Positions 1,542-25,801 of a DNA stretch of 64,000 nt are shown here, one piece after another. Made by a program: the position numbers and the translations under genes. Under the pieces are notes generated by a model. It was not told the origin of the DNA. It did not search any database and saw nothing but the letters and a program-made list of their open reading frames with translations. Positions within the stretch are counted from its first letter, which is position 1. Each line of letters starts with the position of its first letter. Origin of the DNA: Verrucomicrobiota bacterium (lineage in GTDB: Bacteria; Verrucomicrobiota; Verrucomicrobiia; Opitutales; Cerasicoccaceae); NCBI GenBank assembly GCA_039818205.1, contig JBCBUK010000001.1, positions 96,001 through 160,000 of the forward strand, read 5' to 3'.

Positions 1542-1607
1542 AGAATAGCTCACCGCACCATTTAAACCAAGAGCACTTTTGCGCAAAGGCACCCCGAGAC
1601 AACCGCA
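1542..1607 (-). promoter_or_regulatory. Regulon promoter: TGCGGT-N16-TGCGCA-N9-TTGGTT-N17-TATTCT
   Basis: Read directly; same spacing as six other promoters in this locus. Confidence 0.65.
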
Positions 1608-1676
1608 GCTAATCCCTGAAATAAATAGCCATATAACGAACCACTTAGAAGCTCCAGATTGGCTCTATATAACTAA

Positions 1677-3887
1677 CTAATCTTCAACAGTTACTCGATA
1701 AAATCTCGATGATGTTGATAGACTATCGCTCAACTCAAGAATATTCCCGGTCCCCAAAATGTCCTGACGAATTGGCAGCCAACCGGAATCCAGCTGGTTC
1801 GAGGCTTCGAGCGAGTATACCCTACCCTCTTCGGAGCTAAAGGACACAATGATCTCGCCACTAGAAGTGCTTTGAATCGTCACCAAAGGCCAGTTTGTCG
1901 AATCCCGTGGGCTAGTACCGAACGAAAACTCAGTTTGATTGTCATAACCATCAAAGTCCTCATCTCCTAGCGGATCATATAGCTGGTGTGAAGCCATCCA
2001 TCGATCCATATCGGAGCCTGGAACAGTAAGAATCAATCGCGGTTGGTTTGCCGCTGCTCCCTCGCTTGAGATGAATGATACATCGTTACCCGAGAGATGC
2101 TCAATGATGAGGCTCAGGCTTGTTTCACCATCAAGCTCAGTGGCATCGAGCGCCCATTGATAAGTTTCATTGCTCGCAAATGCTCGATTTTGGGTAGCTA
2201 ACTGAACGGTGCTTGTCGGCGCATTGGATTGACCGAGATTCTGCTCGGTCCACGCAGTATTGTTACCCTTATCGATATCGATTCGGCCACTTCCATTATC
2301 CGAACCAACGGATAAATCGAGCCGTGCATTTGTGATGCCGCCAGGAACCTCAGAAAGATCGAATTTCAGATACGATATACGCCGACCGCTCTCGACCCTT
2401 AAGACATTCGTATTGTAACGCTGTCCATTTTGCAGGTAAGCATCTTCAATCGGTTGCAACTCAAATGTGCGTTCAGTTGCGGGAAGAACGGTGACTGAAA
2501 CTGACGCCGAAAATCCTCCATCGACCGTGGTCGCAGTTATCACCGTTTCTCCGCGTTTGGCTCCGGCAACTCGACCCAACCGATCGACGGTCGCGATCAG
2601 CGGATCAGCAGAACTCCAAGTCACTGACTGGTTTGTGGCGTTGGCAGGGGCTATCACTGACCGAAAACCAGTTTCTGCCCCTTCTTCGACATACTCCGAA
2701 TCCGTTTCTACAGAGAGGCCTTCTACAACTACTGGTGGCCCGAGCACAATTGGATAGAGCGTTCCGCCGGAAGGAGGGCCAGCGGCGTAAGGCGTAAAAT
2801 TCGTGAGCGGATTCGCTGGCTTCACCTCATGGGGCCCAAAGTAGACAATGTTCGGATCCGACCACGGACGTGTCCCACCGTGATTGTACTCAATGACATC
2901 GTTCTTATAGATGTAATTGGGTCTGGCGGAAAGGTCGTGCTGAATGGACCAAGGACCCATAATCGAGAAATAGTTCGGACTACCGTTCGGCATATCCGCT
3001 GGGATATGGATTCGGTTGTTCTCGATCAAATTATCACCGTCGTCACCACTGTGAAAGCTGACCTCCTGCTCAAAATCGTTATCATAGACAACATTGTAGC
3101 GAACCCCGTCTCCCTGCAATGAGATGTGGCGCAAGTGAGTGATGTAGCACTTAGTAACTAAGTTATAGCCATCAAGGATGAAGAAGTATCCATGTGCGCC
3201 GCCGTGCTTATTGAATACTCCGTCGATATGGCAGTTCCGAATGGTGACGTGATCTGACGAGACGCGAACCGGAAAATCGGCACTATTCAAGATGTTGCAA
3301 TCGTCGATCCAGCAATCCGTAACCCGATGAAAGAAAACGGATATATTTTCATTTCCAGGGAGCTCGTTATTTGCGTTCGTACCGATATTCCAATCATACT
3401 TTGGGACACCCCAGCCACCCCTAATGGAGAGCCGATAGATTCCTGCGTACCGTATGCCATCTCTGAATTCAAATGCCCCACTGTTGGCGGTCATCGACGG
3501 GTTGATAATACACTGCACCCCCTCACGACTCTCACCAACCAGCGCTACTCCGGACTTGAGCTTTACTTCGTCGTTGATGTCGTAGGTGCCATTTTCCAAT
3601 AGGACTGCCCCGCCACCTTCTGCCTCAACGGCATTGATCGCGGCATTGATTGCCGCACTATCGGAGCCTCCAGAAACAGTTCGAACAATAACCAAGTTCT
3701 CGATTAATGGTATCCCGCCGCGGACTCCCGCTCGGATCCAATGTTCCATCTGGGGATAGTCGGGATCAAATTTACTTTCGTCGAAAGTGACACCTTGGTC
3801 ACCAATTTCGAGTGCCAGGAGCGGCGAAGCCTTCCAGCAATGGCATGCAAAGACGGAGAGGCAGATCAACAAAGCACGGGTAGTCAT
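1677..3887 (-). CDS. Secreted right-handed beta-helix (pectate-lyase-like) protein with Big_2 Ig domain, CBM96/DNRLRE-like domain and Verrucomicrobia-type C-terminal domain
   Basis: Signal peptide; DSAAINAAI...GGAVLLENGTY beta-helix start; IAPANATNQSVTWSSADPLIATVD (Big_2); PIEDAYLQNG...RISYLKFDLS (CBM96-like); GDEDFDGYDNQTEFSFGTSP...FYRVTVE tail. Confidence 0.75.
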   Translation of the reverse strand: MTTRALLICLSVFACHCWKASPLLALEIGDQGVTFDESKFDPDYPQMEHWIRAGVRGGIPLIENLVIVRTVSGGSDSAAINAAINAVEAEGGGAVLLENGTYDINDEVKLKSGVALVGESREGVQCIINPSMTANSGAFEFRDGIRYAGIYRLSIRGGWGVPKYDWNIGTNANNELPGNENISVFFHRVTDCWIDDCNILNSADFPVRVSSDHVTIRNCHIDGVFNKHGGAHGYFFILDGYNLVTKCYITHLRHISLQGDGVRYNVVYDNDFEQEVSFHSGDDGDNLIENNRIHIPADMPNGSPNYFSIMGPWSIQHDLSARPNYIYKNDVIEYNHGGTRPWSDPNIVYFGPHEVKPANPLTNFTPYAAGPPSGGTLYPIVLGPPVVVEGLSVETDSEYVEEGAETGFRSVIAPANATNQSVTWSSADPLIATVDRLGRVAGAKRGETVITATTVDGGFSASVSVTVLPATERTFELQPIEDAYLQNGQRYNTNVLRVESGRRISYLKFDLSEVPGGITNARLDLSVGSDNGSGRIDIDKGNNTAWTEQNLGQSNAPTSTVQLATQNRAFASNETYQWALDATELDGETSLSLIIEHLSGNDVSFISSEGAAANQPRLILTVPGSDMDRWMASHQLYDPLGDEDFDGYDNQTEFSFGTSPRDSTNWPLVTIQSTSSGEIIVSFSSEEGRVYSLEASNQLDSGWLPIRQDILGTGNILELSDSLSTSSRFYRVTVED

Positions 3888-3935
3888 GTTGTCAGCGGAT
3901 GAGGGTGGAGATAACAATGCGAGGACGGACCCTGT

Positions 3936-4003
3936 ATTATAGGGCCACAGGTCACATAAGGAACAACACCAATTATCCGCAAACAGGCGTCAATATTTAC
4001 GCA
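3936..4003 (-). promoter_or_regulatory. Regulon promoter: TGCGTA-N16-TGCGGA-N9-TTGTTC-N19-TATAAT
   Basis: Read directly; perfect -10 box upstream of the 3887 start. Confidence 0.7.
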
Positions 4004-4096
4004 AAGCAAAGCCCGACGATTTCCAAGCTTAGAGACTTACTCCATCTGCACTTGTCAAACGCTCGAGGGCGAAGCCCTGAGCACCGCAGCAATTCC

Positions 4097-5563
4097 TTAG
4101 AAAACCACTTTCAAACAGTAACAAAGATCTCGGCTAAGCGCTGCCGGAAGAGTCACTTTCAGAGCGGTATCATCCTGGACCCAATCAATGTCCTGGTCGG
4201 AACCAAGCAACGATACACTCGTGACTCGGCCATCCTCTGAGCTCAACGACAAAGATTTTAGGGCAGCGACTCCACCGTCGTCTGGATATACCATTCCGGT
4301 CACATAGATCGCTCCACTTTTCGTCGTGAATCGAAAATCTTCCGACGTGTATTCCAACTCTTTTTTCTCGAGCATGTGCCCACCCTGCGGGCGAGTCGGT
4401 CCCTCTCCATACTGCTTCCAGGGACGAGTGCCATAAATCGCTTCACCATTTACTTGAATCCAAGCGCCAATGGCTTCCAAGAGGCTCAGCTCTTCCGCAT
4501 CCAAAGTTCCATCTGGCATGAGTGGGACATTGAGAAGCAGGTTGCCGTTTTTACTGACAATATCCACCAGCATTTCGATCACCTGCCGTGGCGTCTTGTA
4601 GGTGACCTCCTTTTGATAATACCACTTTCCGATGCAGGTGTCGGTCTGCCATGGATCTTCCTGAATCTCGCCGACAACCCCACGCTCGAGATCAACCACG
4701 CCGATCCCATCGACAAAATCACCGAATAGATTCTCATCCTCACCGTGTCCAACTGCCTCTGGATATTGGTTTCCATCTTTGTAGTTGTAGACGACATCCA
4801 TTTTCCCGCCGTGCCAGTCGAGGGATTGGTTGTAGTAGTTAGCCAACATACGGCGGCCATACTCGCCAAACGGAACACCGCCATCAGTATAAATCAAATC
4901 GGGTTGATACTTCTCGACAAAATCGGCAATTCGATCCGACCAGTCTTCAATGAAGGTAACCGGTGGGTTGCGTGGATACTCGTGCGAGGTATCCGGATGT
5001 GGCTCGTAGTAAAAGTCCTGAAAGTCTGGATTCGCTCCGTCATAGGGAACGCCTTTGTACGGTCCTGATTTGTCGCTACCTTTGTTCGTGTTGAACCAGC
5101 TGTAGGAGCGTTCATGGTGTTCAGTGATACCGAATCGAAGACCAGCTTTTCGGGCGGCCTTCTCCCACATACCAACGATATCTTTCTTCGGTCCGATGTT
5201 TACAGAGTTCCAGCGATTGTGTTTCGAGTCCCAGCAATCGAAGTTGTCGTGATGAACACCGCAAGTGGTGAAGTAGCGAGCACCAGTCTTGATGTACAGC
5301 TGAATGAGCGACTCGGGATCAAATTTCTCTGCCTTCCAGAGCGGTAAGATATCTTTGTACCCAAACTCTGACGGGTGGCCGTAATGCTTCAGGTGATGTT
5401 CATAATTGGGATGACCCTCCATATACATCTGGCGGGCATACCAGTCACCAACCATCGGAACCGCTTGAGGCCCCCAGTGCGCCCAAATACCAAACTTCGC
5501 GTCACGAAACCACTCTGGGCATTGATATTGTTGAAGGGAGTTCCAAGTCGGTTCAAATTGCAT
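4097..5563 (-). CDS. Alpha-L-fucosidase, GH29 (no signal peptide)
   Basis: WFRDAKFGIWAHWG, HHDNF, YTDG, WQTDTCIG, DIVSKNGNLLLN, WIQVNGEAIYGTRPW motifs. Confidence 0.93.
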   Translation of the reverse strand: MQFEPTWNSLQQYQCPEWFRDAKFGIWAHWGPQAVPMVGDWYARQMYMEGHPNYEHHLKHYGHPSEFGYKDILPLWKAEKFDPESLIQLYIKTGARYFTTCGVHHDNFDCWDSKHNRWNSVNIGPKKDIVGMWEKAARKAGLRFGITEHHERSYSWFNTNKGSDKSGPYKGVPYDGANPDFQDFYYEPHPDTSHEYPRNPPVTFIEDWSDRIADFVEKYQPDLIYTDGGVPFGEYGRRMLANYYNQSLDWHGGKMDVVYNYKDGNQYPEAVGHGEDENLFGDFVDGIGVVDLERGVVGEIQEDPWQTDTCIGKWYYQKEVTYKTPRQVIEMLVDIVSKNGNLLLNVPLMPDGTLDAEELSLLEAIGAWIQVNGEAIYGTRPWKQYGEGPTRPQGGHMLEKKELEYTSEDFRFTTKSGAIYVTGMVYPDDGGVAALKSLSLSSEDGRVTSVSLLGSDQDIDWVQDDTALKVTLPAALSRDLCYCLKVVF

Positions 5564-5599
5564 CGTAAAAACTGGGATTTAGTTTGACAGTAAACTGTT

Positions 5600-5703
5600 T
5601 ATTTAGGCCGAGTAAGACCCGAAGGTCAAAACTCGCATTGCGCAATCAACCCCTAACTTTGCGCACATTCAGAGTTGAGTCAATCAGCCACAGGAATCAG
5701 ATT
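5600..5703. promoter_or_regulatory. Divergent regulon promoters sharing one pair of TGCGCA boxes (5639-5644, 5660-5665)
   Basis: Minus strand: box-N9-TTGACC-N18-TAAATA. Plus strand: box-N9-TTGAGT-N17-CAGATT. Confidence 0.7.
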
Positions 5704-5772
5704 TTCACCACTGACTTGTTGCAGTATTTCCAAATATGACGCCCAGCGTTGTAACCCCCGTAGAGCAGAACA

Positions 5773-7434
5773 ATGAAGCAGCCGATTTACTTCCTCTTTC
5801 TCGCATTGGTCACGAGTGCGTTTGCAAATACTCCTGATGTTTGGAAACAATACGTGAATGATTACAAGGCGGGGCAACCATCCACCCTCCCCGACTATTC
5901 CTGGGCCGGCTATAAGTACGGTACCGAGGCCATTCCAGATGTCGATTGGAAGGAGTTTAATGTGGTCGATTTTGGTGCTATTCCTAACGATGGCAAATCT
6001 GACTACGAAGCGATTCAGAAAACAATTCGGGCCGCAGAAGCGCATGGATCTGGCGTAGTGTTTTTCCCACCGGGCAGGTTTCTGGTCGCTGAGCGCGAAG
6101 ACATCGAAAAAGGTATTACGATCAACGGTGCCAACATCGTATTACGCGGTAGCGGCAGTGGCGTAAACGGGACCGAGATTCACCAGAAGAACCACTATCT
6201 CCCGGCCGATCCGAAGAAGCTTTGGACGGTTCCCCCGGTTTTTGTATTCAGCCACCCTTCCAGCCGGGTATTCCTGTCTCGCTATCGAAACGAGGCGCAT
6301 AAGCTAGCGACGGTTGTTGAATCAGCCAAACGCGAATCATTTTCTATCGTGCTCAACAATGCTTCGGAAGTTCAAGCTGGGCAGACAGTCATGCTATGCG
6401 CTCGTAGCATCGATCTGAACGAGCAATTCCTATTGGGACTAAAACCACGGAAGATCTTTAGTGAAATCGTCGAGAATGGGGTTTCCGTCTCGGAAAAGCA
6501 CATAGTGAAGTCAGTCGATGGAAACCGAGTCACCTTCGTAGAACCAATTCGCTTCGACATTGATCCCAACATTACTTGGACGCTTTACGACTACCCGATG
6601 ATCGAAGGATGGGGCGTCGAAGATATTCATTTTACAGGCAACTGTCCGGTTCCATTTGTTCATCACAAGAACTTTATTCACGATAGCGGATTCCAAGCGG
6701 TAGCGATGGAAAAAGGACGCAACTGCTGGATACGCCGATGCCGTTTTACCAACATGACACAGGCTTATAAGGCGTCTGGCTGCATTGCTTCATCGTTCAT
6801 TCTCAACACGATTGACGGTCATCAAGGGCATGGAAATTTCAACATGAACTGGGGTGGCGGCAACATGATCGGCCTCTCCCAAGACCTTACCGACAAGGGC
6901 TCATTCCATGGATGCGGCATTTCCCACGAGAACATTAGTGGAGTCATTTGGCGCTACGAGTCGGTCGGTAGCACGGACACAACCCCGCGCTGCGGTGGAC
7001 CAGATTTTCACGCCCAATTTCCATTCTGCTCCCTTTGGGATGCATGTAAGGCCAACCTCATGGACAATGGAGGCAACTACAAGCTACAGCCAAATCATCT
7101 GCGTGACCTTACGTTCTGGAATTTTGAGCAGATCGGAGAAGCGGTATACTATGATTACTGGGCAATACCCGAATCGAAATCGCAAGAGAAAAACCGCTAC
7201 TTCGGTGGGTGCAAGTTGGTCTTTCCAAACTACATCGGCTTTCACGGCGTTAAAACTACCTTCAATCAAGATCACCTCGGAGTATTTGAGTCTTACGGGA
7301 AGCCAGTACAACCTGAATCACTTTACGAGGCACAGCTTGAGCTGCGCCTTGGTCATGCCCCTTCGTGGGTTTCTGATGCGAAAGCCGAATGGTCTCAGCT
7401 AAAGCGAGCGCATCGGGCGGCTCACTCTCAATAA
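5773..7434 (+). CDS. DUF4955-domain beta-helix protein, putative PL29-like glycosaminoglycan lyase
   Basis: Signal peptide; LPDYSWAGY, FNVVDFGAIPNDGKSD, VFFPPGRF; C-terminal LTFWNF...PESLYEAQLELRLG. The DUF4955/PL29 link is recalled from B. thetaiotaomicron BT3328. Confidence 0.75.
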   Translation: MKQPIYFLFLALVTSAFANTPDVWKQYVNDYKAGQPSTLPDYSWAGYKYGTEAIPDVDWKEFNVVDFGAIPNDGKSDYEAIQKTIRAAEAHGSGVVFFPPGRFLVAEREDIEKGITINGANIVLRGSGSGVNGTEIHQKNHYLPADPKKLWTVPPVFVFSHPSSRVFLSRYRNEAHKLATVVESAKRESFSIVLNNASEVQAGQTVMLCARSIDLNEQFLLGLKPRKIFSEIVENGVSVSEKHIVKSVDGNRVTFVEPIRFDIDPNITWTLYDYPMIEGWGVEDIHFTGNCPVPFVHHKNFIHDSGFQAVAMEKGRNCWIRRCRFTNMTQAYKASGCIASSFILNTIDGHQGHGNFNMNWGGGNMIGLSQDLTDKGSFHGCGISHENISGVIWRYESVGSTDTTPRCGGPDFHAQFPFCSLWDACKANLMDNGGNYKLQPNHLRDLTFWNFEQIGEAVYYDYWAIPESKSQEKNRYFGGCKLVFPNYIGFHGVKTTFNQDHLGVFESYGKPVQPESLYEAQLELRLGHAPSWVSDAKAEWSQLKRAHRAAHSQ

Positions 7435-7526: not shown

Positions 7527-7591
7527 TGCGCAAAATGGAAAACGTTATGCGTAAATAATTCCTAGTGTATGATGAGCTTTAAATTAATACT
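7527..7591 (+). promoter_or_regulatory. Regulon promoter: TGCGCA-N15-TGCGTA-N9-TAGTGT-N17-AATACT
   Basis: Read directly; the -35 has TAG instead of TTG. Confidence 0.6.
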
Positions 7592-7817
7592 ACTGCCATA
7601 CAAGGAACCAAAGGCCTCTACAGAAGCCAGCGTCTAAAGTCGTTTCTATCCCGCTCACGACCCCAGCTCAAATTCGAATAGACGATTTATCTAATATATC
7701 GAATTCAGCGGCTACATAACCCCAACCCCCGGAACTCCCCCGCCCAATCTCGTCTCTCTAATTCACGTCACATTGATGCTGAATTAATCATCCCCAAACA
7801 ACCCTCGTATAGTCACA

Positions 7818-9005
7818 ATGAAAGCAATCAGAAAGCTACTACCCCTTCAATCTACCCCGAGACTCATTGTACTCGTTGCTACAGCATGCCTACTCATACC
7901 CCTTGCCCAGGCTAGAACCGTCAACGTTACCCCTAGCAACTTTGCTAGCAAACTAAGCAGTGGCATTGCCAACGGGGATACTGTTATTCTCGCTGGTGGT
8001 AACTACACCATGACAACGGCAATGTGGAACAATGTCGCGTCAAAATCTAATGTACGCTACTATGGCAATGGACGTTATGGTAGTAATCCCACGGTTCTAA
8101 ATTCAACTGGAACTAGGATGCCCCGGGTTCGCATCGATGGCAAAGGCGCCACCATATTCCAAGGAATGCGCATCTTGAACGCGGCCCTATTCTTGCGCAA
8201 CTGTAACAACCATCGATTGAACTACATCTACGCCGAGACTACTCGAAAGCCTCAGTTTGCTGGCGATAGCCTTTTCAATGGTTTCTTGGCTCGAGGCTAT
8301 CAGACAAATCTCGATTCGGCCTGGAGATTTCGCAATGAGACTGGCAAAGCCTACTCGACCAATAGCCCTACCGGATACACGTTCAATAACACCGACTGCA
8401 CCAACTCAAGCGACGTAAAGGGCGCGGTTGACGTTAGCCGGATTCAAGGCAGCGGTGTGGTCACAATCAGTGGTGCAAACGCGTCTCGCTGGTGGAATGC
8501 GCCTACCGGCGGTCGCGATTTCGAAGACCATGGCATCTACGTACGCTCAGGTTCAGTAAACCAACAGATCAAGATCGACAATTGCAGCATGAAAGGCTGG
8601 ACCGATACCGGTGCTGGACAAATGGTCAAGATCAAGGCAACCCAGAATGTTGTTGCTGATCGCATCACAGGCAATCGCTCGGGCATCATTATCCGCACGG
8701 GCAACAATTTCTCGGGTGGCGGCGGAGATCAGATCACCAAGAGTATCTTGGTCAAGCGAAGCACCGTGAGTGCTGGCGACATCAACTGCTACTTTCAATA
8801 CAATGAAGGCGAAGCAATTCGCATCGAAAACAATACGATCCAAAATGGCACGGTTCAGATTAACAGCGTCAATACCAACCCGACCAAAATAAATCGTCGC
8901 CTTCGCCTCATCAGCACCGCTTTAGGGGGAGTATTCAACAACAAGACGAAACAAGCTCTCGATATCCGGAGTGGGATTCGAAACAGTGGAAACACTCGTC
9001 TCTAG
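7818..9005 (+). CDS. Secreted, basic, probable parallel beta-helix protein of unknown family
   Basis: Signal peptide ending AQA; TVNVTP...GDTVILAGGNY start typical of beta-helix lyases; EDHGIYV and IRIENNTI turns; rich in Asn, Gly and Arg. Confidence 0.6.
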   Translation: MKAIRKLLPLQSTPRLIVLVATACLLIPLAQARTVNVTPSNFASKLSSGIANGDTVILAGGNYTMTTAMWNNVASKSNVRYYGNGRYGSNPTVLNSTGTRMPRVRIDGKGATIFQGMRILNAALFLRNCNNHRLNYIYAETTRKPQFAGDSLFNGFLARGYQTNLDSAWRFRNETGKAYSTNSPTGYTFNNTDCTNSSDVKGAVDVSRIQGSGVVTISGANASRWWNAPTGGRDFEDHGIYVRSGSVNQQIKIDNCSMKGWTDTGAGQMVKIKATQNVVADRITGNRSGIIIRTGNNFSGGGGDQITKSILVKRSTVSAGDINCYFQYNEGEAIRIENNTIQNGTVQINSVNTNPTKINRRLRLISTALGGVFNNKTKQALDIRSGIRNSGNTRL

Positions 9006-9048
9006 TTAGGATATTCCTTAGAACAAACAAAAGGGGTTACACAACCGG

Positions 9049-9078
9049 TGCCTCTCAGTCTTGGGAGACTGAGAGGCA
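9049..9078. terminator. Perfect 13-bp hairpin (terminator or mRNA-stabilising)
   Basis: TGCCTCTCAGTCT-TGGG-AGACTGAGAGGCA; no long U tract. Confidence 0.65.
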
Positions 9079-9096
9079 TTGCCTCCCCGAATTCTG

Positions 9097-10134
9097 ATGA
9101 AACATGTATGTTGTAGGCCTAGTGGCCTACTCCTTATTGCGGCGATCTCAATCGGCGCTGGCTACCTACTCGGCCTTAGTCTAAAACGCTCAGAATCGGC
9201 TGTTTCAGGCCAGGATGCCTACCAATACATGGATGCGATCGAGGAAGACGCACAATCTAAGCTTTCACCCTACAACAACCTATTTGCTCCAAAGACTTTT
9301 TCCGCCGAAGAAATATGGAAATGGAAGGCGTATGACGCCTTCCTCGAACCCGAATTCAGCCTCACCAAGGGCGCCAACTGGTCGAGCCTGAGAACGATGC
9401 TTGACCAGGATCTTTACGGGACGCTTGATGCATTGGTTGCTCTGGACCTCGGCACGGCAATCGACGTCATAAGCCTACCGGTTTACCTTGGTCAGTATCT
9501 CTCGGAATTTAATTTCGCTGATGCCGTGACCATCACCGAACGGCTACAGAACGATCACTACTTATTTCAAACAACGATCGACGAACTGACCGTTGCCCTT
9601 ACTGATCAGCCCAATCGCGTATATGAAGTTAAGCGATACTATCAGGAGAATCCAGAAAACCCAGTTATCGAATCAAGTGCTCGACTGTTTGGAGCGCGCC
9701 TAAACGAGTTGGAAGGCGGCGTCGAAGCTGCATTGAACTATGCAACGACCCTTCCACCCGGCACAACCCGTGGACAGCTGATTGAAGGTGCGATTATCCC
9801 GTGGATTGATAGTAACCCGGCTCAAGCCGAAGCCTATCTCAATTCTATTGGGAACGCATCAAGCGGCGAACTCAATGGCTCCCATTCCATGGTGGCGATG
9901 TCCTATAGTTCCACCGGCAACTATCGCCAAGGACTCCAAGTTGCTGAAAATATTCCCGAATCACAAGATCGGTATAATGGCATATATGCAGTTGTCTGGG
10001 ACTGGGCTGAGAATGACTCATCTAGCCTCCATTCATTCGCTCAGGAACCGACCAATGCAATCGACGAGCAAACCAAAATCATCATTCAGTATGTCTTCGA
10101 GGACCAATTCGAAACCCGCAAATCGTTGCCCTAG
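9097..10134 (+). CDS. Hypothetical membrane-anchored alpha-helical repeat protein
   Basis: One N-terminal TM segment (LLLIAAISIGAGYLLG); acidic helical body with WIDSNP and WAEND repeats. Confidence 0.65.
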   Translation: MKHVCCRPSGLLLIAAISIGAGYLLGLSLKRSESAVSGQDAYQYMDAIEEDAQSKLSPYNNLFAPKTFSAEEIWKWKAYDAFLEPEFSLTKGANWSSLRTMLDQDLYGTLDALVALDLGTAIDVISLPVYLGQYLSEFNFADAVTITERLQNDHYLFQTTIDELTVALTDQPNRVYEVKRYYQENPENPVIESSARLFGARLNELEGGVEAALNYATTLPPGTTRGQLIEGAIIPWIDSNPAQAEAYLNSIGNASSGELNGSHSMVAMSYSSTGNYRQGLQVAENIPESQDRYNGIYAVVWDWAENDSSSLHSFAQEPTNAIDEQTKIIIQYVFEDQFETRKSLP

Positions 10135-12773: not shown

Positions 12774-12777
12774 TCTG

Positions 12778-15700: not shown

Positions 15701-15843
15701 CCGGTTGCTGAAAGTCCTTCAGGAATGCCATCTTCGAAACTTTCGAGAATCTGAAAATCCGACGACACTTTATCGGCACCGAGAGCCGAAGATGCCCCCA
15801 ACGCCACAATGAATGTGAAGACTGAACGATACATTTGGAACAT
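12778..15843 (-). CDS. Chondroitinase ABC-like polysaccharide lyase (PL8)
   Basis: N-terminal domain LNFKGWRTIW; HHYSY; KPDGTIFHHGGHAYGYG (catalytic His/Tyr region); DWCRIPGAT; KTWFFFGNKVVCLGSDI; WIDHG; LSLADPDL. Confidence 0.88.
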   Translation of the reverse strand: MFQMYRSVFTFIVALGASSALGADKVSSDFQILESFEDGIPEGLSATGQLELDQDRIKHGAKSVRWDWQGNDRFIFDRPIGYRKQQPISEGGGALEHTDSSAGQILEPPRGFFVWVYNDEARPQRLRIEFGRGDEVDCWFDYNLNFKGWRTIWLTFDRGDMKGVPHEDMDRLTINAPNTGSGTFYFDTFGFGLPINPRTVGGNPQLPSIDPHPRLVSQYEHFLYWASQQRSTEPVEPLTDAILADLRQVEDQATNQWLSKAECERWNDDKMKGIEKRFSAFGIRRDGDNIYGRPLLKTNVMTEYFSELGLAKEELMPDTMTWKREFGPMLLSIARAWHCTKSQEAKNRLEEMFINLFDYGVDQGFDHGAGLGWIHHYSYEIREIAPAMFLMREPLARNERLDKAVEICKWFHGFNQVYRPDMAYGWQGRKACDADDMQGLLASRLLCALMMPDSPEKVRDLRQFSHFFSEVSTAYANALDETFKPDGTIFHHGGHAYGYGGRAIFGAARTYDILKDTQFRATENARKRIAKVATTYYDGLFTDDWMTPKAFASIRFSNYKSPNSFRNMHDLFDDSYEPLNGFRMLPYSCVGFKRRGGDWMITARGHSKFVYAFESWGRNYFAFPQFIANGYLDVSYPDSIDSLTPTSGSDIWNAGIDWCRIPGATTVKLPFEKIATRVGQVRDEAGEYIFSDQAFSGGVESTYGAGIQVFQFTGHDKYDLESFSGKKTWFFFGNKVVCLGSDIESDVEGYPVETTIFQNSLAETIEPIIVNGSKVDRFPFDDVLEDTQPNWVIDNRGTGFYFPQATVQLTRAEQTNPDSNFEESVSGDFTVAWIDHGIAPKQASYEYVLLAATNEEEMKTFTKQPSIAVVQHDSIAHVVHSSEENSTAYAVYSPQGAKFDSGLVVEVSKQAVFLLKEEEGTLRLSLADPDLNIYDGQEDRLPDGSRIELSIYEREWFFWPSRPHHVRLALKGRWEISDLVVPMETAQSQPTIISSDDDLTVIEFECRDGLSTEIVLTAQET

Positions 15844-17337
15844 TTAGTTAAGTTCGATTTTAAACACTGTCGCGATGTCGTTCATGTCAGCGTCTGGAAC
15901 GGTCAGAATAAAATTCCGCAAGGCAAAGTGCCAGGGCACTTCGACATCAGTTCCCAAAAGAGTAATACGCTTAAACCCTTCGGCTGGATAGAAGTCGTGC
16001 TTCGCGAGCCCGCGAATCTCAATCTCGCTCCCGACTTCGGGCTTTCCTAACATAAACAAGTAAAGGTATCGCCCGTCTTTCGATTGTAGCAATCGCCCAT
16101 CGTCCGCCGTGTACTCCGTCGTAACTGCCTGGCCTCCGAAATGTCCATCCTTCGCCTTAGCTTTTCCAAAGCCGTAGAACTCAAAGGGACGTGTTTCGTA
16201 GACTGCTTCTGCGTGCTCGTGCATCCACTCGCCGATCTCTCCCAGGATCTTCCGTTGCTCTTCGGGGATGATTCCTTCAGCAGTAGGTGAGACATTTAGG
16301 AGGACGATCCCGTTCTTACTCCAGACATCGATCATGTTGCGAACAATCAACTCAGCCGGTTTATATTTCTGGCCCTCAATATAACTCCAAGACTCCGTGC
16401 TTAAGGTAAAATCAGTCAACCAGATGGACTCAGAAAGGTCTTTCTTACCTCCGGATTCAATATCGAGCACGCCGACAGTGTTCGGTAAATCATTCTGTTT
16501 ATACGCAAGGACGACTTCCTGCCCTTCTTTCTTCGCCGCATTTAAGTAGTAAGCCGTAAACTCCTGCCGTTTGCTTTCAGGGATAAGATTCAACCAGGAG
16601 TCAAACCAAACGATATCCGGTGAATATTGATCCACCACTTCGACCAACTGATCCATCCAGTATTGGTTAAAGTCCTCTTCGGACATATTGCCGTACAACT
16701 TGGCCAACTCTGGATCGGTCGAGGAAGTCGCGAAATCAGGGTGATACTTAAAATGGCTATTGTAGCCGCCCCAGTTCTCAGGGTCGTCCGCATAGCGTTG
16801 TCCATTGCGCGCATGGTGGAAAGTCGTGATAAACTTCAAGCCCTCACCTTTGATCGCCGTCTCCAGCTCTCCGGTTAGGTCCTTCCCGGGTCCTTTGTTG
16901 TAGGAGTTCCACGGGTTCACTTCACTGCGCCAAAGCGCATAGCCGTCATGGTGCTGAGCACAGGGACCTGCGAACTTAGCACCGGTGGCCTTGAATAGCT
17001 CAGCCCATTCTTCCGCATCGAAATGTTCAGCGGTGAACATCGGAACGAAATCATGGTAGTTGAAGTCCTTCGGGTCCCCGTAGGTCTCGCGGTGGTGTTT
17101 TTCAACCGGGTGGCCATCATCTCGGTACATGTGCCACGGATACCACTCGCTACCGAAGGCCGGAACGGTATGAACGCCCCAGGTAAAATAGATTCCGAGC
17201 TTCGCATCGGCAAACCATTCCGGCGCCTCGTTGTGAGCCGAGAGTGATTCCCAGTCCGCTGTATACTCGGAATACAGCAAAGGCGTGAAGATTGAGAAGC
17301 TTGCGATTAATTGGAGTTTTAGCTTTGTTTTCATCAT
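15844..17337 (-). CDS. Alpha-L-fucosidase, GH29 (signal peptide)
   Basis: WFADAKLGIYFTWG, QHHDGY, VWFDS, DVWSKNGIVLLN. Start placed at MMKTKL. Confidence 0.92.
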   Translation of the reverse strand: MMKTKLKLQLIASFSIFTPLLYSEYTADWESLSAHNEAPEWFADAKLGIYFTWGVHTVPAFGSEWYPWHMYRDDGHPVEKHHRETYGDPKDFNYHDFVPMFTAEHFDAEEWAELFKATGAKFAGPCAQHHDGYALWRSEVNPWNSYNKGPGKDLTGELETAIKGEGLKFITTFHHARNGQRYADDPENWGGYNSHFKYHPDFATSSTDPELAKLYGNMSEEDFNQYWMDQLVEVVDQYSPDIVWFDSWLNLIPESKRQEFTAYYLNAAKKEGQEVVLAYKQNDLPNTVGVLDIESGGKKDLSESIWLTDFTLSTESWSYIEGQKYKPAELIVRNMIDVWSKNGIVLLNVSPTAEGIIPEEQRKILGEIGEWMHEHAEAVYETRPFEFYGFGKAKAKDGHFGGQAVTTEYTADDGRLLQSKDGRYLYLFMLGKPEVGSEIEIRGLAKHDFYPAEGFKRITLLGTDVEVPWHFALRNFILTVPDADMNDIATVFKIELN

Positions 17338-17405
17338 CAAATTCAGAAAGAGGATTTCGTTGATCGCTTGACTTGCTTTACCCGTGGAAACCAACGCCTC
17401 GGTCA

Positions 17406-19433
17406 CTACTTATCGAGTAAGTTGGGATTCACGTGTGGTTCCGCATCCTTAGAAAACTCATGTTGCAAAAGCGCCATAAGTCTCTCGACTTGTTCCGGAT
17501 AATCTCCTGCGCGGTCCACACTCTCGGAGGGATCCACTGCTAGATTATAGAGTTCGGGAGAAGCATTCTTGGTGTTCGGTGTATCCGCGTGCAGAACCAG
17601 CTTCCAACCATTGTTCATGAGAGCTAGATTCCGTGGTGTACGCCAATAAAACGTTTCCGAGGCACGAATGACATCCTCTGATTCAAGGGGCCTATCCGAG
17701 TCAACAGAGCTGGCGCCATCGGCAAGGTTCACTATGATCCCATATAAATCCTCGATGATTACCGGTGACTCCCAACTCTCGCTTGGTAGTGTCCCTTGCC
17801 AATAGAGAAACGCAGGCACCTTAACGCCTCCGTTGTAAGGACTCGCTTTCCATCCGCGTAGGTCACCAGTGTCTCCGTAGTGCCCGTCATTGCCGTAGAA
17901 GTTCACCTCGTGAAAGTCCTCGGGTATATACCATTTTTTGCCAGGAGATGAAGGGCCATTGTCGCTGAAAAAGACGATCAACGTTTCATCGAACAGGTTC
18001 TTTCGCTCGAGAGCCTCGACGATTTGCGCAATTGAATTGTCGATTTGCGTCATCATCCCGGCGTACCCTTGGCGGGTATTTGTGTCGTATTTGCCCTCAT
18101 AAATGGCGGACCAATCAGGATCAACCTGGATCGGAACGTGCGGCGCGGTGTAGCTCAAACACAGAAAAAATGGATCGCCTCCAACGTTTTCGAGGTAACG
18201 AAGTGCATCCTTAGTGATCAAATCGGTCGTATGGCCCTCCTCTCGAGGCGCAATTTCATGGTCCCGAAACCAATCGTAGCCAGTCTCTGGATTCTCTCGT
18301 GTGTATTGATCCGTCCAACCACCACGCAGACCAAAATGATAGTCGAAGCCTTGAGCAAGCGGTGCAAATTCTGACTCAACACCCAAGTGCCATTTGCCAA
18401 TCAATGCGGTATGATACCCATGAGATTGCAAAACCTCCGGGAGGGTTTCGACATCGGCTGGAATCCCGTAGTTGTCGTCATGTTGAATCGGGTAAACGAT
18501 TCCTAGTTCGCTCGGTGCCTTTCCAGAAAAGAACGCAGCGCGCGACGGAGTACACGTTGAATACGCGTAAAAATCCATCAATCTGATACCACCCTCCGCA
18601 AGCCGGTCGATTGTTGGTGTCTCTATATCGCCCCCATGGTAACCGACGTCTTTCCAGCCGGCATCATCCAAAATAATGGCGACGATATTCGGCTGAGGAG
18701 CTTTTTCATAGACCCGGATATTGCTGTATTGGCTGCTGCGGGTCCACATGTGTCGAAACCCAACGCGACCGGTGTCGACCGGCGGATACTTTGACGTGTC
18801 CCATTCAAACTCGTGAACTTCGTCATCACGCTCAGCAACAAAGGTCAGTCGATGACCAATCTTGGTTGCGGTAATATGCCAAGTTTCTCCAGGAGAGAAC
18901 AAATCAATATCTCGGTATATCGGCTGAACCTGAGTCCCCGTCTGAAAGTCCTTCAGGTCGGCGGCAGGATAACGTCGTGCTGAAACATATCGCCCATCGG
19001 TCGCATAAGAAACATGCAAAGAATTCATGTTCAGGAAATAGTATTTCATCCAGGGCTCACGGCGCTGTTCAGTGGATAGAAATATGTCCGTGGGCGCCGC
19101 TTCAGTGCCCAAACCGGTTGCCTGAATATATAGAATGTTGACTCCCGCATCGAGGTTCTCGTCGAGACGGGTGTAGTCATATTCAACCTTAATGTCTCCC
19201 TCGAAGGACTGCTTTGTCCACAATACTGCATGACTCGCATGTTCGCGGAGATTTGGACCCGCCGAGAAGGTCATTCCATTTTCCGAATTCTCTACTGACG
19301 CTTTATCTCCTTCAAGGAACCACTTTGTATTCCATGCACTCGCCCCCGCATCGTCAAAGACGAGCTGCCATTCATTCGCGTGAGCTGACAGGGAAAGAAT
19401 GAAGAACGATACGTAGAACAAACGTCTCATCAT
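17406..19433 (-). CDS. Fusion of a DUF1961/YesU-like domain and an S1 arylsulfatase
   Basis: aa ~20-243: HAVLWTKQSFEGDIKVEYDYTR...GRVGFRHMWTRSSQYSNIRV. Then PNIVAIILDDAG, CTPSRAAF, GKWHLG, APHVP, SDNG. Confidence 0.85.
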   Translation of the reverse strand: MMRRLFYVSFFILSLSAHANEWQLVFDDAGASAWNTKWFLEGDKASVENSENGMTFSAGPNLREHASHAVLWTKQSFEGDIKVEYDYTRLDENLDAGVNILYIQATGLGTEAAPTDIFLSTEQRREPWMKYYFLNMNSLHVSYATDGRYVSARRYPAADLKDFQTGTQVQPIYRDIDLFSPGETWHITATKIGHRLTFVAERDDEVHEFEWDTSKYPPVDTGRVGFRHMWTRSSQYSNIRVYEKAPQPNIVAIILDDAGWKDVGYHGGDIETPTIDRLAEGGIRLMDFYAYSTCTPSRAAFFSGKAPSELGIVYPIQHDDNYGIPADVETLPEVLQSHGYHTALIGKWHLGVESEFAPLAQGFDYHFGLRGGWTDQYTRENPETGYDWFRDHEIAPREEGHTTDLITKDALRYLENVGGDPFFLCLSYTAPHVPIQVDPDWSAIYEGKYDTNTRQGYAGMMTQIDNSIAQIVEALERKNLFDETLIVFFSDNGPSSPGKKWYIPEDFHEVNFYGNDGHYGDTGDLRGWKASPYNGGVKVPAFLYWQGTLPSESWESPVIIEDLYGIIVNLADGASSVDSDRPLESEDVIRASETFYWRTPRNLALMNNGWKLVLHADTPNTKNASPELYNLAVDPSESVDRAGDYPEQVERLMALLQHEFSKDAEPHVNPNLLDK

Positions 19434-19462
19434 GCTATGGATGCGGTAACGCGAGAGGCTTT

Positions 19463-19496
19463 AAAAAACCCCTACCATGCACTTGGTAGAGGTTTT
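19463..19496 (-). terminator. Intrinsic terminator after the PEP-CTERM gene
   Basis: Minus strand AAAACCTCTACCA-agtgca-TGGTAGGGGTTTTTT (one G-U pair, U tract). Confidence 0.75.
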
Positions 19497-19522
19497 GAAA
19501 AATAATCTCTAACCCCAGGGGA

Positions 19523-20263
19523 TTAGCGACGACGTCGGCGTAGAATTGCGACCCCGAGGACGCCCACGCCAGCGATCATCGCGTAGGTGCTAGGTTCGGG
19601 GATAGTCGAAAAACCTACCGAGTCCACATAGAAAATGCGGCCACCGGTGCTGCCTTGGTTCGAACTGTCAAAAGAAGAAATCCGCAAACCCAAAGTGCTA
19701 CCAACATCGGCTAGTGCGATCGTGTAGGTCAAAGGACCTTCAGCCCGGCCAGGATTGATAGGACCATTCGATCCAGCAACCGGATCCACCGTAGAGAGCA
19801 ATAGGTTAGCACCCGAAGCCGCATTGCCCGATCCGAAAGTATTCACTCGCAGATAGTTCTGTTCTCCAAGTGCCCCGACATCCGTGCCATCCAGTAGAAT
19901 GGACCAGTCTACCGAGGTACCGGTTTGGTGGCGAACTCCAGCGTCAATCGTCACGACCTTACCAACATCTCCAGCCGTAATGGTCCCAAAATCGCCGACA
20001 ACAGCGTTCACGGCAGAAGCGGTTGCCGTTCGAAAAATCTGAGCATATCCGTCATCAGTAGCGTCTAAAAAATCTCCGTCAGTAACAGAATTCTCAAGAG
20101 TAAAAGACGAAACTGTAGTGCTTTCCAACGTAAAAACGGCTGTATTGGCTGAACCGCCTCCTCCGCCAGAGAAGGTTTCTGTAAAATCAGCGACAAGCTG
20201 AGCCTGCGAAACAGGTGCGAGTGCGAGCAGACCGAACGCTGCGGTGTAGATTGAGGATTTCAT
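19523..20263 (-). CDS. PEP-CTERM sorting domain protein
   Basis: Signal peptide; IPEPSTYAMIAGVGVLGVAILRRRRR. Confidence 0.92.
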   Translation of the reverse strand: MKSSIYTAAFGLLALAPVSQAQLVADFTETFSGGGGGSANTAVFTLESTTVSSFTLENSVTDGDFLDATDDGYAQIFRTATASAVNAVVGDFGTITAGDVGKVVTIDAGVRHQTGTSVDWSILLDGTDVGALGEQNYLRVNTFGSGNAASGANLLLSTVDPVAGSNGPINPGRAEGPLTYTIALADVGSTLGLRISSFDSSNQGSTGGRIFYVDSVGFSTIPEPSTYAMIAGVGVLGVAILRRRRR

Positions 20264-20380
20264 ATTCAAGTATGTTTGGTTGTTTAGGGTAATGAACTTG
20301 TAAGTCCTTGCTGAAGTATCGGTATAAAACTCAGATGTACTGAATAACTGATTAGGGGTTATACCGCGGTTAACGATGAC

Positions 20381-20447
20381 AGATAATCGCGATTCGCCTC
20401 TAATGATACAACGACATTATTGCGCAATGGAATGCAACTTTTCCGCA
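20381..20447 (-). promoter_or_regulatory. Regulon promoter: TGCGGA-N15-TGCGCA-N9-TTGTAT-N19-TTATCT
   Basis: Read directly; oriented towards the PEP-CTERM, sulfatase, GH29, PL8, sulfatase run. Confidence 0.65.
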
Positions 20448-20555
20448 AAACGAAAACGGCTGAGATCTTTACACCAGACATGTGTCTGATCGAAACAATC
20501 AGCGAGTAGTTAATAACTCTGCGTAACAAAGCTATCATTTTGACAATTTACGTCT

Positions 20556-20622
20556 TGCGCAATACTTGATAACCTATGCGCAAATATCCCGTTGACCAAA
20601 CCGGGTATAGATAGGTCAGAAT
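20556..20622 (+). promoter_or_regulatory. Regulon promoter: TGCGCA-N15-TGCGCA-N9-TTGACC-N19-CAGAAT
   Basis: Read directly; the TTG used as a start codon by the ORF track (20592) is this -35 element. Confidence 0.7.
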
Positions 20623-20627
20623 ATGGT

Positions 20628-22643
20628 ATGATGAGTTACTCCTTCAAACCCTGCGAACCCGACTATGCATTGAGCCCGCACACGGGAATCACGCGTACAC
20701 ATTGGGTTGCTGCAGCAAAATTTCTGATCGATGGTGTGTTCAGCCACATTAATGACTTTGAATCTCCGATTCTAATTCCGAAGCAGAATGAGATCAGCTA
20801 TCCCCAACCGGACGATCCTAAGCATCGTTTCCAAGCAGCGGAATTTGAAGGTATCGCTCGCACATTCATGGCAGCTTGTCACGTGATAAACGAAGACACC
20901 AGCTACGAAAGCAACGGCATCAATCTACGGGATTACTATGCACATCAGATTCTGCAAGCGACCGACCCGGAGTCACCCCGTTTCTGGGGGCGCATCACCG
21001 ACTTCACCAAGGAACATGGGCGGATGCAATACCAACAGACGGTCGAAGGCGCTGCGTTAGTCATCAGCTTGATGGCTTGTAAAGACAAGATCTGGGATCG
21101 CTACTCACCCGACGAGCAAGCACAGATCGCAGAACTCATTTCGGACTACGCCCATAGCCTAACGATTGGTCACAACTGGCGTTTCTTCAATGTGCTAATG
21201 CTGACGTTTTTGAAGGTCAACGGATTCGCTATCGACGAAGACGCGCTCACCGACCATATCCAACACATCCTCAGCTTCCACGTCGGCGACGGATGGTATA
21301 TCGACGATACCAACTACGACCTGTACAACCCATGGGGCTTTCACTTTTACGGGCCAATCTGGTGCCAATGGTACGGGTATGAACATGAGCCAGTGGTTGC
21401 GCAGATCCTCGAGCAGCGCAACAAACAGTTCATCGAATCCTGGCCACGGTTCTTTGCCCGGGACGGTAAGCAACCGATGTGGGGCCGAAGCATCATTTAC
21501 CGCTTCGCGGCATCTACAGCATTCGGCGCCCACTTTCTGATGAAGGATCCGGTACTTGACCCTGGATTTGCTCGCCGCATCGCATCAGGAAACATCATGC
21601 AGTTCCTTCCACGGGAAGATCTCTACGTCAACGGAGTCCCTTGCCTTGGATACTACGGACCCTACGAACCGCTGATCCAGTTCTACAGCTGCGCGGCAAG
21701 TCCTTTCTGGATCGCTAAAGTGTTCATCGCGCTTTCACTGGAAGAAGATAGCCCCTTCTGGACCGCAACGGAGAACGAAGGCTTTTGGGACGAGCAAGAA
21801 GATACATCGTCAACGGTCAACATTGCCGGACCGGGCATTCAAGTTACTAACCACGGAAAAACGGGCACGGTGGAGATGCGCACGGGTAAAGTTCACCTGC
21901 ACGACTCCTACTACAATCAGTTGCAGTTCAATCCAGACTTTCCACTCGAGATCGAAACACCCGATGGCGCCAACGCAGCCAACTACTCGATTCGAGAGAA
22001 AGGCCTTGGCCATGACTTTCGCATCCCACTCAATATCGCCTTCAACCGCTTTGACGGTGACCTAATCTACCGAGTTCAGAATACGCAGCCACTCGGCCTC
22101 GGTGACCCGAACAAGGGCGGTGTGAACCGTGGCCCCGAGAGAATCGACCTATGCGATATCCCGGTTCCCGGTGGCGTACTCCGAGTCGATCGAGTCCGAG
22201 TTCCCTACCAATATGAACTACAACTTGGCCACTACGCCCTTCCGCATCTCAATGGACAGTCGGCAGTCGTCGAGAAGATTGAAGAAGGCATCATCGGAAG
22301 CATTCCTGATGGACGGAAAATCGCCCTCTTGCCAATCCACGGATGGGATAAAGTCCAAGCCGTCGAACACGAGAAGCTAAATCCCGAAGCCGATAAGAGT
22401 ACCGTCCTCTATGCCGAGCGCACCCGCAACAAGGACTATTCGGGAATGGAAGTGTTTGTCACCTTACTCTTGCACCGCATTGACGGCGGTAATTGGACAA
22501 AGGAAGAGCTGAACCCAGTAAGAAAAATCGAGATTCTTCCGTGGGCACCGTCGGGCAGCGCATGTGGCATCGAGATCACAATGTCCGATGGAAGCGAGAT
22601 CCTGATCGACTACAGCGAAGCCGATGCCCGTCGCGTAGTCTAG
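20628..22643 (+). CDS. DUF2264 family protein, putative GH154-like beta-glucuronidase (no signal peptide)
   Basis: EFEGIARTF, QQTVEGA, NWRFF, GDGWYID, DLYNPWGFHFY, WGRSIIYRFA, YSCAASPFW. Confidence 0.82.
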   Translation: MMSYSFKPCEPDYALSPHTGITRTHWVAAAKFLIDGVFSHINDFESPILIPKQNEISYPQPDDPKHRFQAAEFEGIARTFMAACHVINEDTSYESNGINLRDYYAHQILQATDPESPRFWGRITDFTKEHGRMQYQQTVEGAALVISLMACKDKIWDRYSPDEQAQIAELISDYAHSLTIGHNWRFFNVLMLTFLKVNGFAIDEDALTDHIQHILSFHVGDGWYIDDTNYDLYNPWGFHFYGPIWCQWYGYEHEPVVAQILEQRNKQFIESWPRFFARDGKQPMWGRSIIYRFAASTAFGAHFLMKDPVLDPGFARRIASGNIMQFLPREDLYVNGVPCLGYYGPYEPLIQFYSCAASPFWIAKVFIALSLEEDSPFWTATENEGFWDEQEDTSSTVNIAGPGIQVTNHGKTGTVEMRTGKVHLHDSYYNQLQFNPDFPLEIETPDGANAANYSIREKGLGHDFRIPLNIAFNRFDGDLIYRVQNTQPLGLGDPNKGGVNRGPERIDLCDIPVPGGVLRVDRVRVPYQYELQLGHYALPHLNGQSAVVEKIEEGIIGSIPDGRKIALLPIHGWDKVQAVEHEKLNPEADKSTVLYAERTRNKDYSGMEVFVTLLLHRIDGGNWTKEELNPVRKIEILPWAPSGSACGIEITMSDGSEILIDYSEADARRVV

Positions 22644-22734
22644 AACCGTGCCTTTCTACGAGAAATTTAAGAAGACTATTGATACGTAGGGTCCTGATAA
22701 TTAGGATGCTGTGAAACCAAATTGATCAATTGCC

Positions 22735-23949
22735 GTGCCGATAAAAAAAGTTGGAAATCAAAGAAGCTACAAGAAGGTGGCACTCGCGATCACCGCCCAC
22801 GAATATGCTTACGGCCGTGAGAAGATCAAGGGGTTGATCGAATACTACTCGCGGCATGCCGCCTGGGAGGTCCAGCGCAACGAGCTCTCCCAGCCCTTCG
22901 TACGGTTTCCATCACTTAGGAACTGGAGTGGAGATGGTGTTGTCGGCGAGATCTACAGCGAGGAAGACGGAGCAATTGCCCGAGAGCTGGAGGCCTTCTA
23001 CGTCAACACCTCGAGCAGTCGTCACGCAGAAGGTTTGCCTTCCGTTCGAATCGACAACCAGATCGTTGGCGAAATGGGTGCGGACCATCTCTCCGAGATG
23101 GACCTGGACAATTTTCTCTTCGTTGGTCCAACAGACTTACTCCACGTGCAAGAGCGCTACGAAGGTTTTATTCGTGCGTTGAAACGCTCACAGGACAGCT
23201 GCACGCTCCTCAAATATGCACCAAAGGAGAAAGGTAGTCTTTATTCTTCGGAGGAAACGGTTCGCCCTTCGGAGTTGATGAATTCGCTGAAGGATCTACC
23301 AACTCCAATTGGTATCATGGCCGCGACCGACCGTATTGGTTTCGCGGTGCTTGAGGCCTGCCACCGCCTCGGCTTGCGATCTCCGGAAGATGTCTCGCTG
23401 ATCGGCGTGGATAACGACGAGATTTATTGTAATCTCGCGCACACCTCAATGACCAGTATCGACACGCACGCACGTGAAGTTGGAATTCGCGCAGCTGATA
23501 TGCTCGACAAGCTGATGAAGGGGAAGCCAGTCGAAAACCACCAGGTTCGAATCCCCCCACGCGGAGTCATATTGAGAGATTCAACTGACACCACTCGGTC
23601 CAAATACCCTGAGATGGCCCGAGCCCTGCGCTTTATTCGAAACAATGCCCATCGCGTCATTGACGTGACCAACGTTATTGATGTCGTGCCCGTGTCCCGA
23701 CGCTGGCTTGAAACTAAGTTCAAAGAAGAGCTTGGCCACGGCATCTTCCATGAGATTCGCCGGGTGCATGTCGATCGAGCCAAAGAACTCCTTGCTGACA
23801 AGACGCTAACGTTTTCTCAAGTCGCTCGCGAAAGCGGATTCACAACCCAAGAACGATTCTATTTCGCATTCGAGAAAGTAACGGGCATGAAACCGAGCGA
23901 ATACCAATCGAAAGCGGTAGCAAAACCGCCTCGCGGATTGCGCAAATAA
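22735..23949 (+). CDS. XylR-type transcriptional regulator (periplasmic-binding-protein-like sensor + AraC HTH)
   Basis: VRIDNQIVGEMGADHL, PEDVSLIGVDND, C-terminal VSRRWLETKF...VARESGF...FEKVTGMKPSEY. Confidence 0.92.
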   Translation: MPIKKVGNQRSYKKVALAITAHEYAYGREKIKGLIEYYSRHAAWEVQRNELSQPFVRFPSLRNWSGDGVVGEIYSEEDGAIARELEAFYVNTSSSRHAEGLPSVRIDNQIVGEMGADHLSEMDLDNFLFVGPTDLLHVQERYEGFIRALKRSQDSCTLLKYAPKEKGSLYSSEETVRPSELMNSLKDLPTPIGIMAATDRIGFAVLEACHRLGLRSPEDVSLIGVDNDEIYCNLAHTSMTSIDTHAREVGIRAADMLDKLMKGKPVENHQVRIPPRGVILRDSTDTTRSKYPEMARALRFIRNNAHRVIDVTNVIDVVPVSRRWLETKFKEELGHGIFHEIRRVHVDRAKELLADKTLTFSQVARESGFTTQERFYFAFEKVTGMKPSEYQSKAVAKPPRGLRK

Positions 23950-24005
23950 TAGGTATTTTTTGCGCATTATTTCCGTTGTCCAAGTCTTGGTCGGCCAACT
24001 ATTCT
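23939..24005 (+). promoter_or_regulatory. Regulon promoter: TGCGCA-N16-TGCGCA-N9-TTGTCC-N18-TATTCT
   Basis: Read directly; the first box overlaps the last codons of the regulator gene. Confidence 0.7.
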
Positions 24006-25797: not shown

Positions 25798-25801
25798 TAA
25801 A

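Follow-up and report, generated by a model that had tools for sequence, protein, structure and literature searches.

Gene content of the locus and its repeat pairs

The window analyzed here, a 64-kilobase (kb) stretch of the genome of a Verrucomicrobiota bacterium (assembly GCA_039818205.1, G000 in our numbering), covers positions 96001-160000 of its contig C1 (JBCBUK010000001.1). Unprefixed coordinates are positions in the window, C-numbers denote the contigs of a genome, and (+) and (-) denote the strand. A locus whose genes span 837-33366 encodes a PL8 protein, two GH29 and two DUF4955 proteins, four sulfatases, a beta-glucuronidase, a symporter, prepilin-type and PEP-CTERM proteins and, at 22735, a XylR-family regulator (Table 1). 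Placed among these genes are seven pairs of TGCGCA-like hexamers. In our assessment the pairs are likely the operator at which the 22735 protein would bind to activate a glycosaminoglycan-degradation regulon, after sensing an imported sugar derived from chondroitin.

All seven pairs were found where a preceding sequence-only reading of the window had placed them, with a repeat period of 21-22 base pairs (bp). When the pairs are read toward their downstream genes, a gap of exactly 9 nucleotides (nt) lies between the proximal hexamer and a TTG in seven of the eight orientations listed in that reading, and between the hexamer and a TAG (at 7563) in the remaining one, precisely as it had been described. 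To these can be added a ninth orientation, the minus strand of the 20556 pair, where 9 nt lead to TTGTCA. Two of the seven pairs (sites 3 and 6) are consequently two-faced, with a TTG 9 nt out on both sides, and site 3 is placed between the divergent GH29 and DUF4955 genes. The distal box of site 7 overlaps the final codons of the regulator gene. An extra, single TGCGTA box occurs at 20521-20526, between sites 5 and 6.

Table 1. Predicted genes, repeat pairs and other features of the locus, in window coordinates
Feature	Position	Strand	Details
Prepilin-type N-methylation protein	837..1514	-	225 amino acids (aa) from ATG at 1514
Site 1	1542..1607	-	Boxes 1602-1607, 1580-1585; 9 nt; TTGGTT 1565-1570; 17 nt; TATTCT; toward prepilin-type gene; weakest site
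Beta-helix / Big_2 / CBM96 protein	1677..3917	-	Candidate lyase or glycan binder
Site 2	3936..4003	-	TGCGTA / TGCGGA; 9 nt; TTGTTC 3961-3966; 19 nt; TATAAT; toward beta-helix / immunoglobulin (Ig) / CBM96 gene
GH29 protein	4097..5563	-	Alpha-L-fucosidase family
Site 3	5624..5680	two-faced	Boxes 5639-5644, 5660-5665; TTGACC (-) 5624-5629 and TTGAGT (+) 5675-5680, each 9 nt off
DUF4955 protein	5773..7434	+	Partial match to BT3328-family lyase, below cut-off
Site 4	7527..7568	+	TGCGCA / TGCGTA; 9 nt; TAGTGT; toward orphan 395-aa gene, 270 nt downstream
Orphan 395-aa protein	7818..9005	+	Predicted right-handed beta-helix; sequence relatives not found
Two open reading frames (ORFs)	9079..11170	+	No Pfam family above cut-off; downstream of strong hairpin; membership uncertain
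PL8 operon	11199..19433	-	DUF1961-sulfatase, GH29, PL8 chondroitin-ABC-lyase-like protein (12778-15843), sulfatase
13-bp hairpin + U tract	19455..19515	-	Between PEP-CTERM gene and PL8 operon (z -3.5)
PEP-CTERM protein	19523..20263	-	246 aa
Site 5	20406..20447	-	TGCGGA / TGCGCA; 9 nt; TTGTAT; toward PEP-CTERM gene
Site 6	20541..20597	two-faced	Boxes 20556-20561, 20577-20582; TTGACC (+) 20592-20597, TTGTCA (-) 20541-20546
DUF2264 protein	20628..22643	+	Predicted GH154 / beta-glucuronate dehydratase relative
Sigma-70-like promoter match	22679..22707	+	9/12, directly before regulator gene, without operator; chance level for scan
XylR-family regulator	22735..23949	+	
Site 7	23939..24005	+	Proximal box 23961-23966; TTGTCC; 18 nt; TATTCT; toward symporter operon
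Symporter operon	24037..33366	+	Sodium:solute symporter, sulfatase, GH2 beta-glucuronidase, sulfatase, second DUF4955 protein

Architecture and statistics of the pairs

A TTG follows the distal box in none of 21 sites, which marks the TTG as a separate -35 element; the idea that it belongs to the repeat is thereby ruled out. Box mismatches are unevenly spread, with 18 out of 25 at hexamer positions 5-6, and this asymmetry identifies the repeats as direct and rules out an inverted repeat. To judge from their letters, then, each pair is a direct repeat whose hexamers have a near-palindromic core, and the -35 is an element apart from it; the core would account for the -35 on each side of two of the pairs.

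A regular expression describing the whole architecture gave nine matches across the window; every one lies between 1.6 and 24.0 kb, with none past 33.4 kb, in agreement with the limit proposed earlier. In leave-one-out scans, between 7 and 49 of the 9,695,482 genome positions scored at least as high as the left-out site (training sites counted), 1580/1602 being the weakest. An unsupervised search for dyads at 21/22 bp returned TGCGCA as its top word, found in 6 of 24 upstream regions versus 39 of 2,854 genome-wide (p 4.9e-7); the best of 150 random loci reached 5.7e-6, leaving out one draw that landed on this locus. The -10 hexamer that had been suggested 17-19 nt further on is upheld as an average signal (best TATAAT-like score at a spacer of 16-19, mean 4.44 versus 2.98 when shuffled, p 0.0002). 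Its quality is uneven, with a good TATAAT after 3976 and TATTCT after 1580 and 23961, and it is weak after 5660(+) and 5639(-), where about three of six positions match in each case. A generic promoter scanner, whose counts were at chance level, found none of the promoters at the seven sites, and Rfam gave no match in the window at gathering score.

TGCGCA is a common target of type II enzymes, and 24 perfect copies occur in the window, so a cluster of restriction-methylation sites, or chance and base composition, might be suspected behind the pattern. We find this hardly credible in view of the fixed 21/22 + 9 nt spacing, the orientation toward genes, the conservation across orders and all of the controls. 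As far as statistics go, chance and composition are refuted.

The regulator compared with E. coli XylR

The 22735 protein combines a periplasmic-binding-protein fold (Peripla_BP_3, E 1.5e-28) with an AraC-type double helix-turn-helix (HTH; HTH_18, E 7.7e-16) and matches E. coli XylR over its full length (4FE4, E 2.5e-42; profile E 2.5e-76), with which it shares this arrangement of sensor and DNA-binding domains at 28% identity (PDB 4FE4/4FE7). E. coli XylR sites are two direct repeats adjoining the -35 (PMC3561964) and are listed as activator sites (PMC7567609). The xylA promoter reads TGTGAA-15-TGTGAA-9-TTGAGC, and in the xylF promoter a 21-bp repeat is followed, after 9 nt, by TTGTTT. The pairs thus resemble the IA and IF operators (xylAB, xylFGH) in having two direct repeats at 21 bp and exactly 9 nt to TTG, which bears out the earlier comparison with XylR-type direct repeats abutting the -35. 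Given that xylA and xylF share the 21 + 9 nt spacing, the architecture is already known, and what is new is the TGCGCA box and the regulator clade.

The differences are several. The box is TGCGCA rather than TGTGAA/GATAAA and its period 21 or 22 bp; the first recognition helix reads SRRWLE, compared with SRSNLE in E. coli XylR; there are seven sites plus satellites instead of two; and single pairs face both ways, whereas E. coli XylR uses two separate, loop-joined sites. Only three of the six residues that contact xylose in E. coli XylR (Y18, D65, W135, R139, D219 and Q237, as given in PMC3561964) are kept, namely as Y26, R141 and D226, the others being replaced (D65 by Y74, W135 by H137, Q237 by T244), and for this reason the inducer is probably not xylose. 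Nor does the locus resemble that of a xylose-responsive orthologue, as its box is TGCGCA and the locus proteins scanned included no member of a xylose isomerase or kinase family. The named relatives of the regulator are from Verrucomicrobiota (Pontiella, Lentimonas and Rubellicoccus labels). Our literature search, with most subscription papers beyond its reach, found neither the TGCGCA box nor any XylR-type operator from this phylum described, and the passages available from bioRxiv 10.64898/2026.10.06.756941 contain no motif analysis.

In the proposed mechanism, a uronic-acid- or N-acetylgalactosamine-containing product imported by the symporter would act as inducer. One AraC domain would cover each 21-bp repeat, and the proximal domain would abut RNA polymerase at a sigma-70-type -35, i.e. 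class II-type activation. The near-palindromic core would allow sites 3 and 6 to be read in either direction and to serve two promoters; a similar two-faced pair is found in another genome, G008. The 22735 protein might instead bind the pairs mainly as a repressor that is released by the inducer, as could be imagined from the related loci L001 and G008, where some sites lie right at the regulator start with no -35 behind them, and from a pair at C1:466779-466800 that straddles a promoter-like TTAACC-17-TATAAT. In the window, however, 9 nt separate the end of the boxes from the poor -35 elements that follow, just as at the sites from which E. coli XylR activates, and we regard a mainly repressing role as very unlikely.

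Thirteen XylR-family loci were identified in G000, and clustered strong sites occur at only one of them, the 22735 locus. At the 12 others the unsupervised dyad search singled out only TCCGCA near C5:212567 (p 2.7e-6), which on inspection was mixed and unconvincing. Five proteins of this genome, of 784-830 aa, contain two tandem XylR units (C10:150558, C21:16146, C2:510358, C1:560763 and C5:212540). Their N- and C-terminal units separate on a tree, and one such chain could span both operator repeats.

Recurrence of the motif in other genomes

A search for close relatives of the regulator identified them in 1 of 60 related genomes, in 3 of 400 from the phylum, where four candidates were scored for each genome, and on one further contig. 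The comparative set consists of six loci in five other assemblies, with sites picked on the boxes alone, and the motif recurs there beside the regulator relatives. A TTG at exactly +9 was found in 13 of 32 gene-facing orientations versus none of 13 non-facing ones, while each of 21 other offsets gave at most two among the same 32. The -10 signal was again raised (3.84 versus 2.88, none of 5,000 shuffles being as high), and 38 sites lay no more than 25 kb from the regulator (236 kb of sequence) versus a single site farther out (125 kb). The motif is retained where the cargo differs; near a paralogue in G256, 39% identical, several distal boxes are the variants GTCGCA and GTCGTA. Related loci encode PL8, chondroitinase-B or heparinase-type domains. 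A model derived from 16 sites in other genomes places the orientations of the window at ranks 1-6, 8, 9, 11, 12, 15 and 19 in G000, a ranking that is partly circular because those sites had been found with the matrix of the window.

The box also tends to accompany the SRRWLE recognition helix. Of 12 other regulators with this helix, 10 had a site within 6 kb and seven had two or more; the corresponding counts for 44 other XylR genes were 13 and two. In 295 randomly chosen windows, at least one site was present in 12.5% and at least two in 1%. Left out of this count were the regulator of the window (training), L024 and L030 (duplicates), and L038 and a truncated copy near G256a (incomplete). 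In a tree of sensor domains L035-L037 form a separate SRRWLE lineage with the pair present in two of the three, suggestive of a second helix-box association. In L035 (2180) and L036 (9935) these distant XylR genes (28% identity) have a TGCGCA pair directed toward a divergent prepilin-type gene.

A strict version of the pattern matched 9 of 401 phylum genomes versus 1 of 401 for a reversed control. Six of the matching genomes were without a close regulator relative (G309, G229, G012, G111, G105 and G391), and a XylR search covered the first five of them. One of three sites in G309 directly precedes a distant XylR gene. Two operator-like pairs of that genome, at C1:91511 and C65:13314, are near-identical on different contigs, and one of them directly precedes a XylR gene. 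Together with the spacing identity to the E. coli XylR promoters, the comparative tests support well the earlier proposal that the pairs are the operator of the 22735 regulator.

A number of observations weigh against this interpretation. Nineteen of the 32 gene-facing orientations are without an exact TTG at +9 (at least two of the three letters match in 20 of 32), the held-out sites were located with a window-trained matrix, the strict pattern was written after four of the genomes had been seen, and related sequences in these counts are non-independent observations. The single sites near the 13 more distant XylR genes imply that the box is not exclusive to the SRRWLE clade, and exclusivity is further challenged by G229, where the XylR gene is about 41 kb off on the same contig, and by G012, with XylR genes on other contigs only. 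No XylR was found at E 1e-40 in G111 and G105 despite a strict match, which in G111 lies near a LacI-type gene. The last case, the palindromic hexamer and the 12 other XylR-family genes of G000 would all suit a situation in which another factor, i.e. a further XylR paralogue or a LacI-type protein recognizing the TTGCGCAA palindrome, binds the pairs and the 22735 gene is a mere neighbor. This we consider unlikely, as the mismatch asymmetry indicates direct repeats instead of a LacI/GalR operator, no LacI HTH match was found in the 22735 protein, the spacing is the same as in E. coli XylR sites, and five genomes of the same family in which the regulator clade was not found gave only three scattered matches versus six for the control; moreover, no one-component regulator other than 22735 was found among the locus genes scanned. 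From G000 itself it must be added to the points against binding by the 22735 protein as regulon activator that the best solved relatives of GH29 include an L-galactosidase, that both of its GH88 genes are outside the locus, that the strong site at C1:466779 faces no gene, and that the 8.2-kb PL8 operon (sulfatase-GH29-PL8-sulfatase) carries no site and is preceded by a terminator-like 13-bp hairpin with a U tract.

Extent of the regulon

The sequence-only reading had taken the motif to set the boundaries of the locus. This holds within the window, but probable sites also occur on C12 and C15, and the PL8 operon is without one. Three of the first five off-locus hits in the genome scan are C12:6816, C12:7000 and C15:22376. 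The genes behind them are paralogues of the beta-helix, DUF4955 and PL8 genes, and no other long-match paralogues of these three were found outside the locus. Probable satellite members of the regulon are thus located in the regions C12:3653-10043 and C15:22376-29888, which contain paralogues of the beta-helix and DUF4955 genes, a PL8 gene fused to a domain like that of the PEP-CTERM protein, and GH88 nearby. One GH88 gene is situated 1.4 kb past the C15 PL8 gene, and the other comes after a TGCGGA pair at C1:294427, where the TTG is 11 nt away. Since the PL8 operon of the locus has a hairpin upstream and no site, its membership requires read-through, by which it would be transcribed. On the minus strand at C1:466779-466805, a strong TGCGGA pair straddles the promoter-like sequence of a plus-strand sugar ABC transporter operon, possibly as a repression site.

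Through the operator, genes that are otherwise unannotated (the orphan beta-helix, DUF4955, prepilin-type and PEP-CTERM genes), as well as genes on other contigs, can be linked to the use of chondroitin, which provides candidates for new glycosaminoglycan enzymes. It also makes a role of pilin-like and PEP-CTERM proteins in glycan capture testable; pilin-like proteins have reportedly been proposed to act in glycan uptake in Akkermansia. By simple patterns, the 34 distinct first genes behind sites at eight loci include four PEP-CTERM and three prepilin-type genes, these seven coming from five loci, and the same patterns give 91 and 36, respectively, among the 3,894 ORFs of G000. Genes of these two types may be more frequent in glycan loci in any case. 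The 21 + 9 nt XylR spacing is retained from one phylum to another although the box letters differ, which offers a rule for reading other XylR regulons. As a tentative and so far rather doubtful extension, marine Verrucomicrobiota could possess a glycosaminoglycan-capture module without SusC/D, in which the sugar-sensing activator has prepilin-type and PEP-CTERM surface proteins as its direct first targets in several lineages, the orphan beta-helix protein acts as a novel lyase, and the palindromic box fires two divergent promoters without the loop of E. coli XylR.

Substrate and enzymes of the locus

The enzyme families of the locus point to chondroitin sulfate as its most likely target, possibly in fucosylated form, as suggested by the GH29 genes. 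The PL8 protein (12778) has the domains Lyase_N, Lyase_catalyt, Lyase_8 and Lyase_8_C and matches 2Q1F (E 1.1e-103), and the beta-glucuronidase scores above its NCBIfam cut-off. The DUF2264 protein (20628) is, by sequence, a relative of the GH154 uronate dehydratase BcGDH, matching 9O4U over residues 101-392 (E 3.2e-13) and keeping all three proposed catalytic residues (Y229/R285/Y289 of BcGDH aligned with Y245/R299/Y303). As described in PMC12269599, BcGDH is a chondrosine-active dehydratase of the chondroitin polysaccharide utilization locus (PUL) in Bacteroides caccae, and the present locus resembles such PULs in combining a lyase with sulfatases and a relative of the GH154-type uronate dehydratases. 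Unlike in these PULs, the locus proteins that were scanned contained no SusC/SusD family, and the locus instead has a cytoplasmic one-component XylR, a sodium symporter and GH29 genes, with GH88 outside. A literature search on DUF2264 found nothing, and among the papers listed for fucosylated chondroitin and Verrucomicrobia none was relevant by title.

Other features of the window

For the 395-aa orphan no homologue was found among 4,592 candidates of 217-692 aa. It resembles beta-helix proteins in Atlas, and the beta-helix call is based on this look-up alone; its single-sequence fold has a mean predicted local distance difference test score (pLDDT) of only 34.7. The gene is preceded by a long predicted leader (7599-7817, about 220 nt) with no Rfam match, and on its 3' side there is a 13-bp hairpin without a U tract at 9048-9078 (z -4.2 for 9006-9078). 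Just beyond the locus, a CMD-family gene and a SigJ-type extracytoplasmic function (ECF) sigma factor are located at 35120-36594, with no connection to the motif. Further downstream, at 53524-61287, a protein of 2,587 aa with Ig-like repeats and the nuclease domains Exo_endo_phos and Endonuclease I is encoded, adjoining a PEP-CTERM-like gene.

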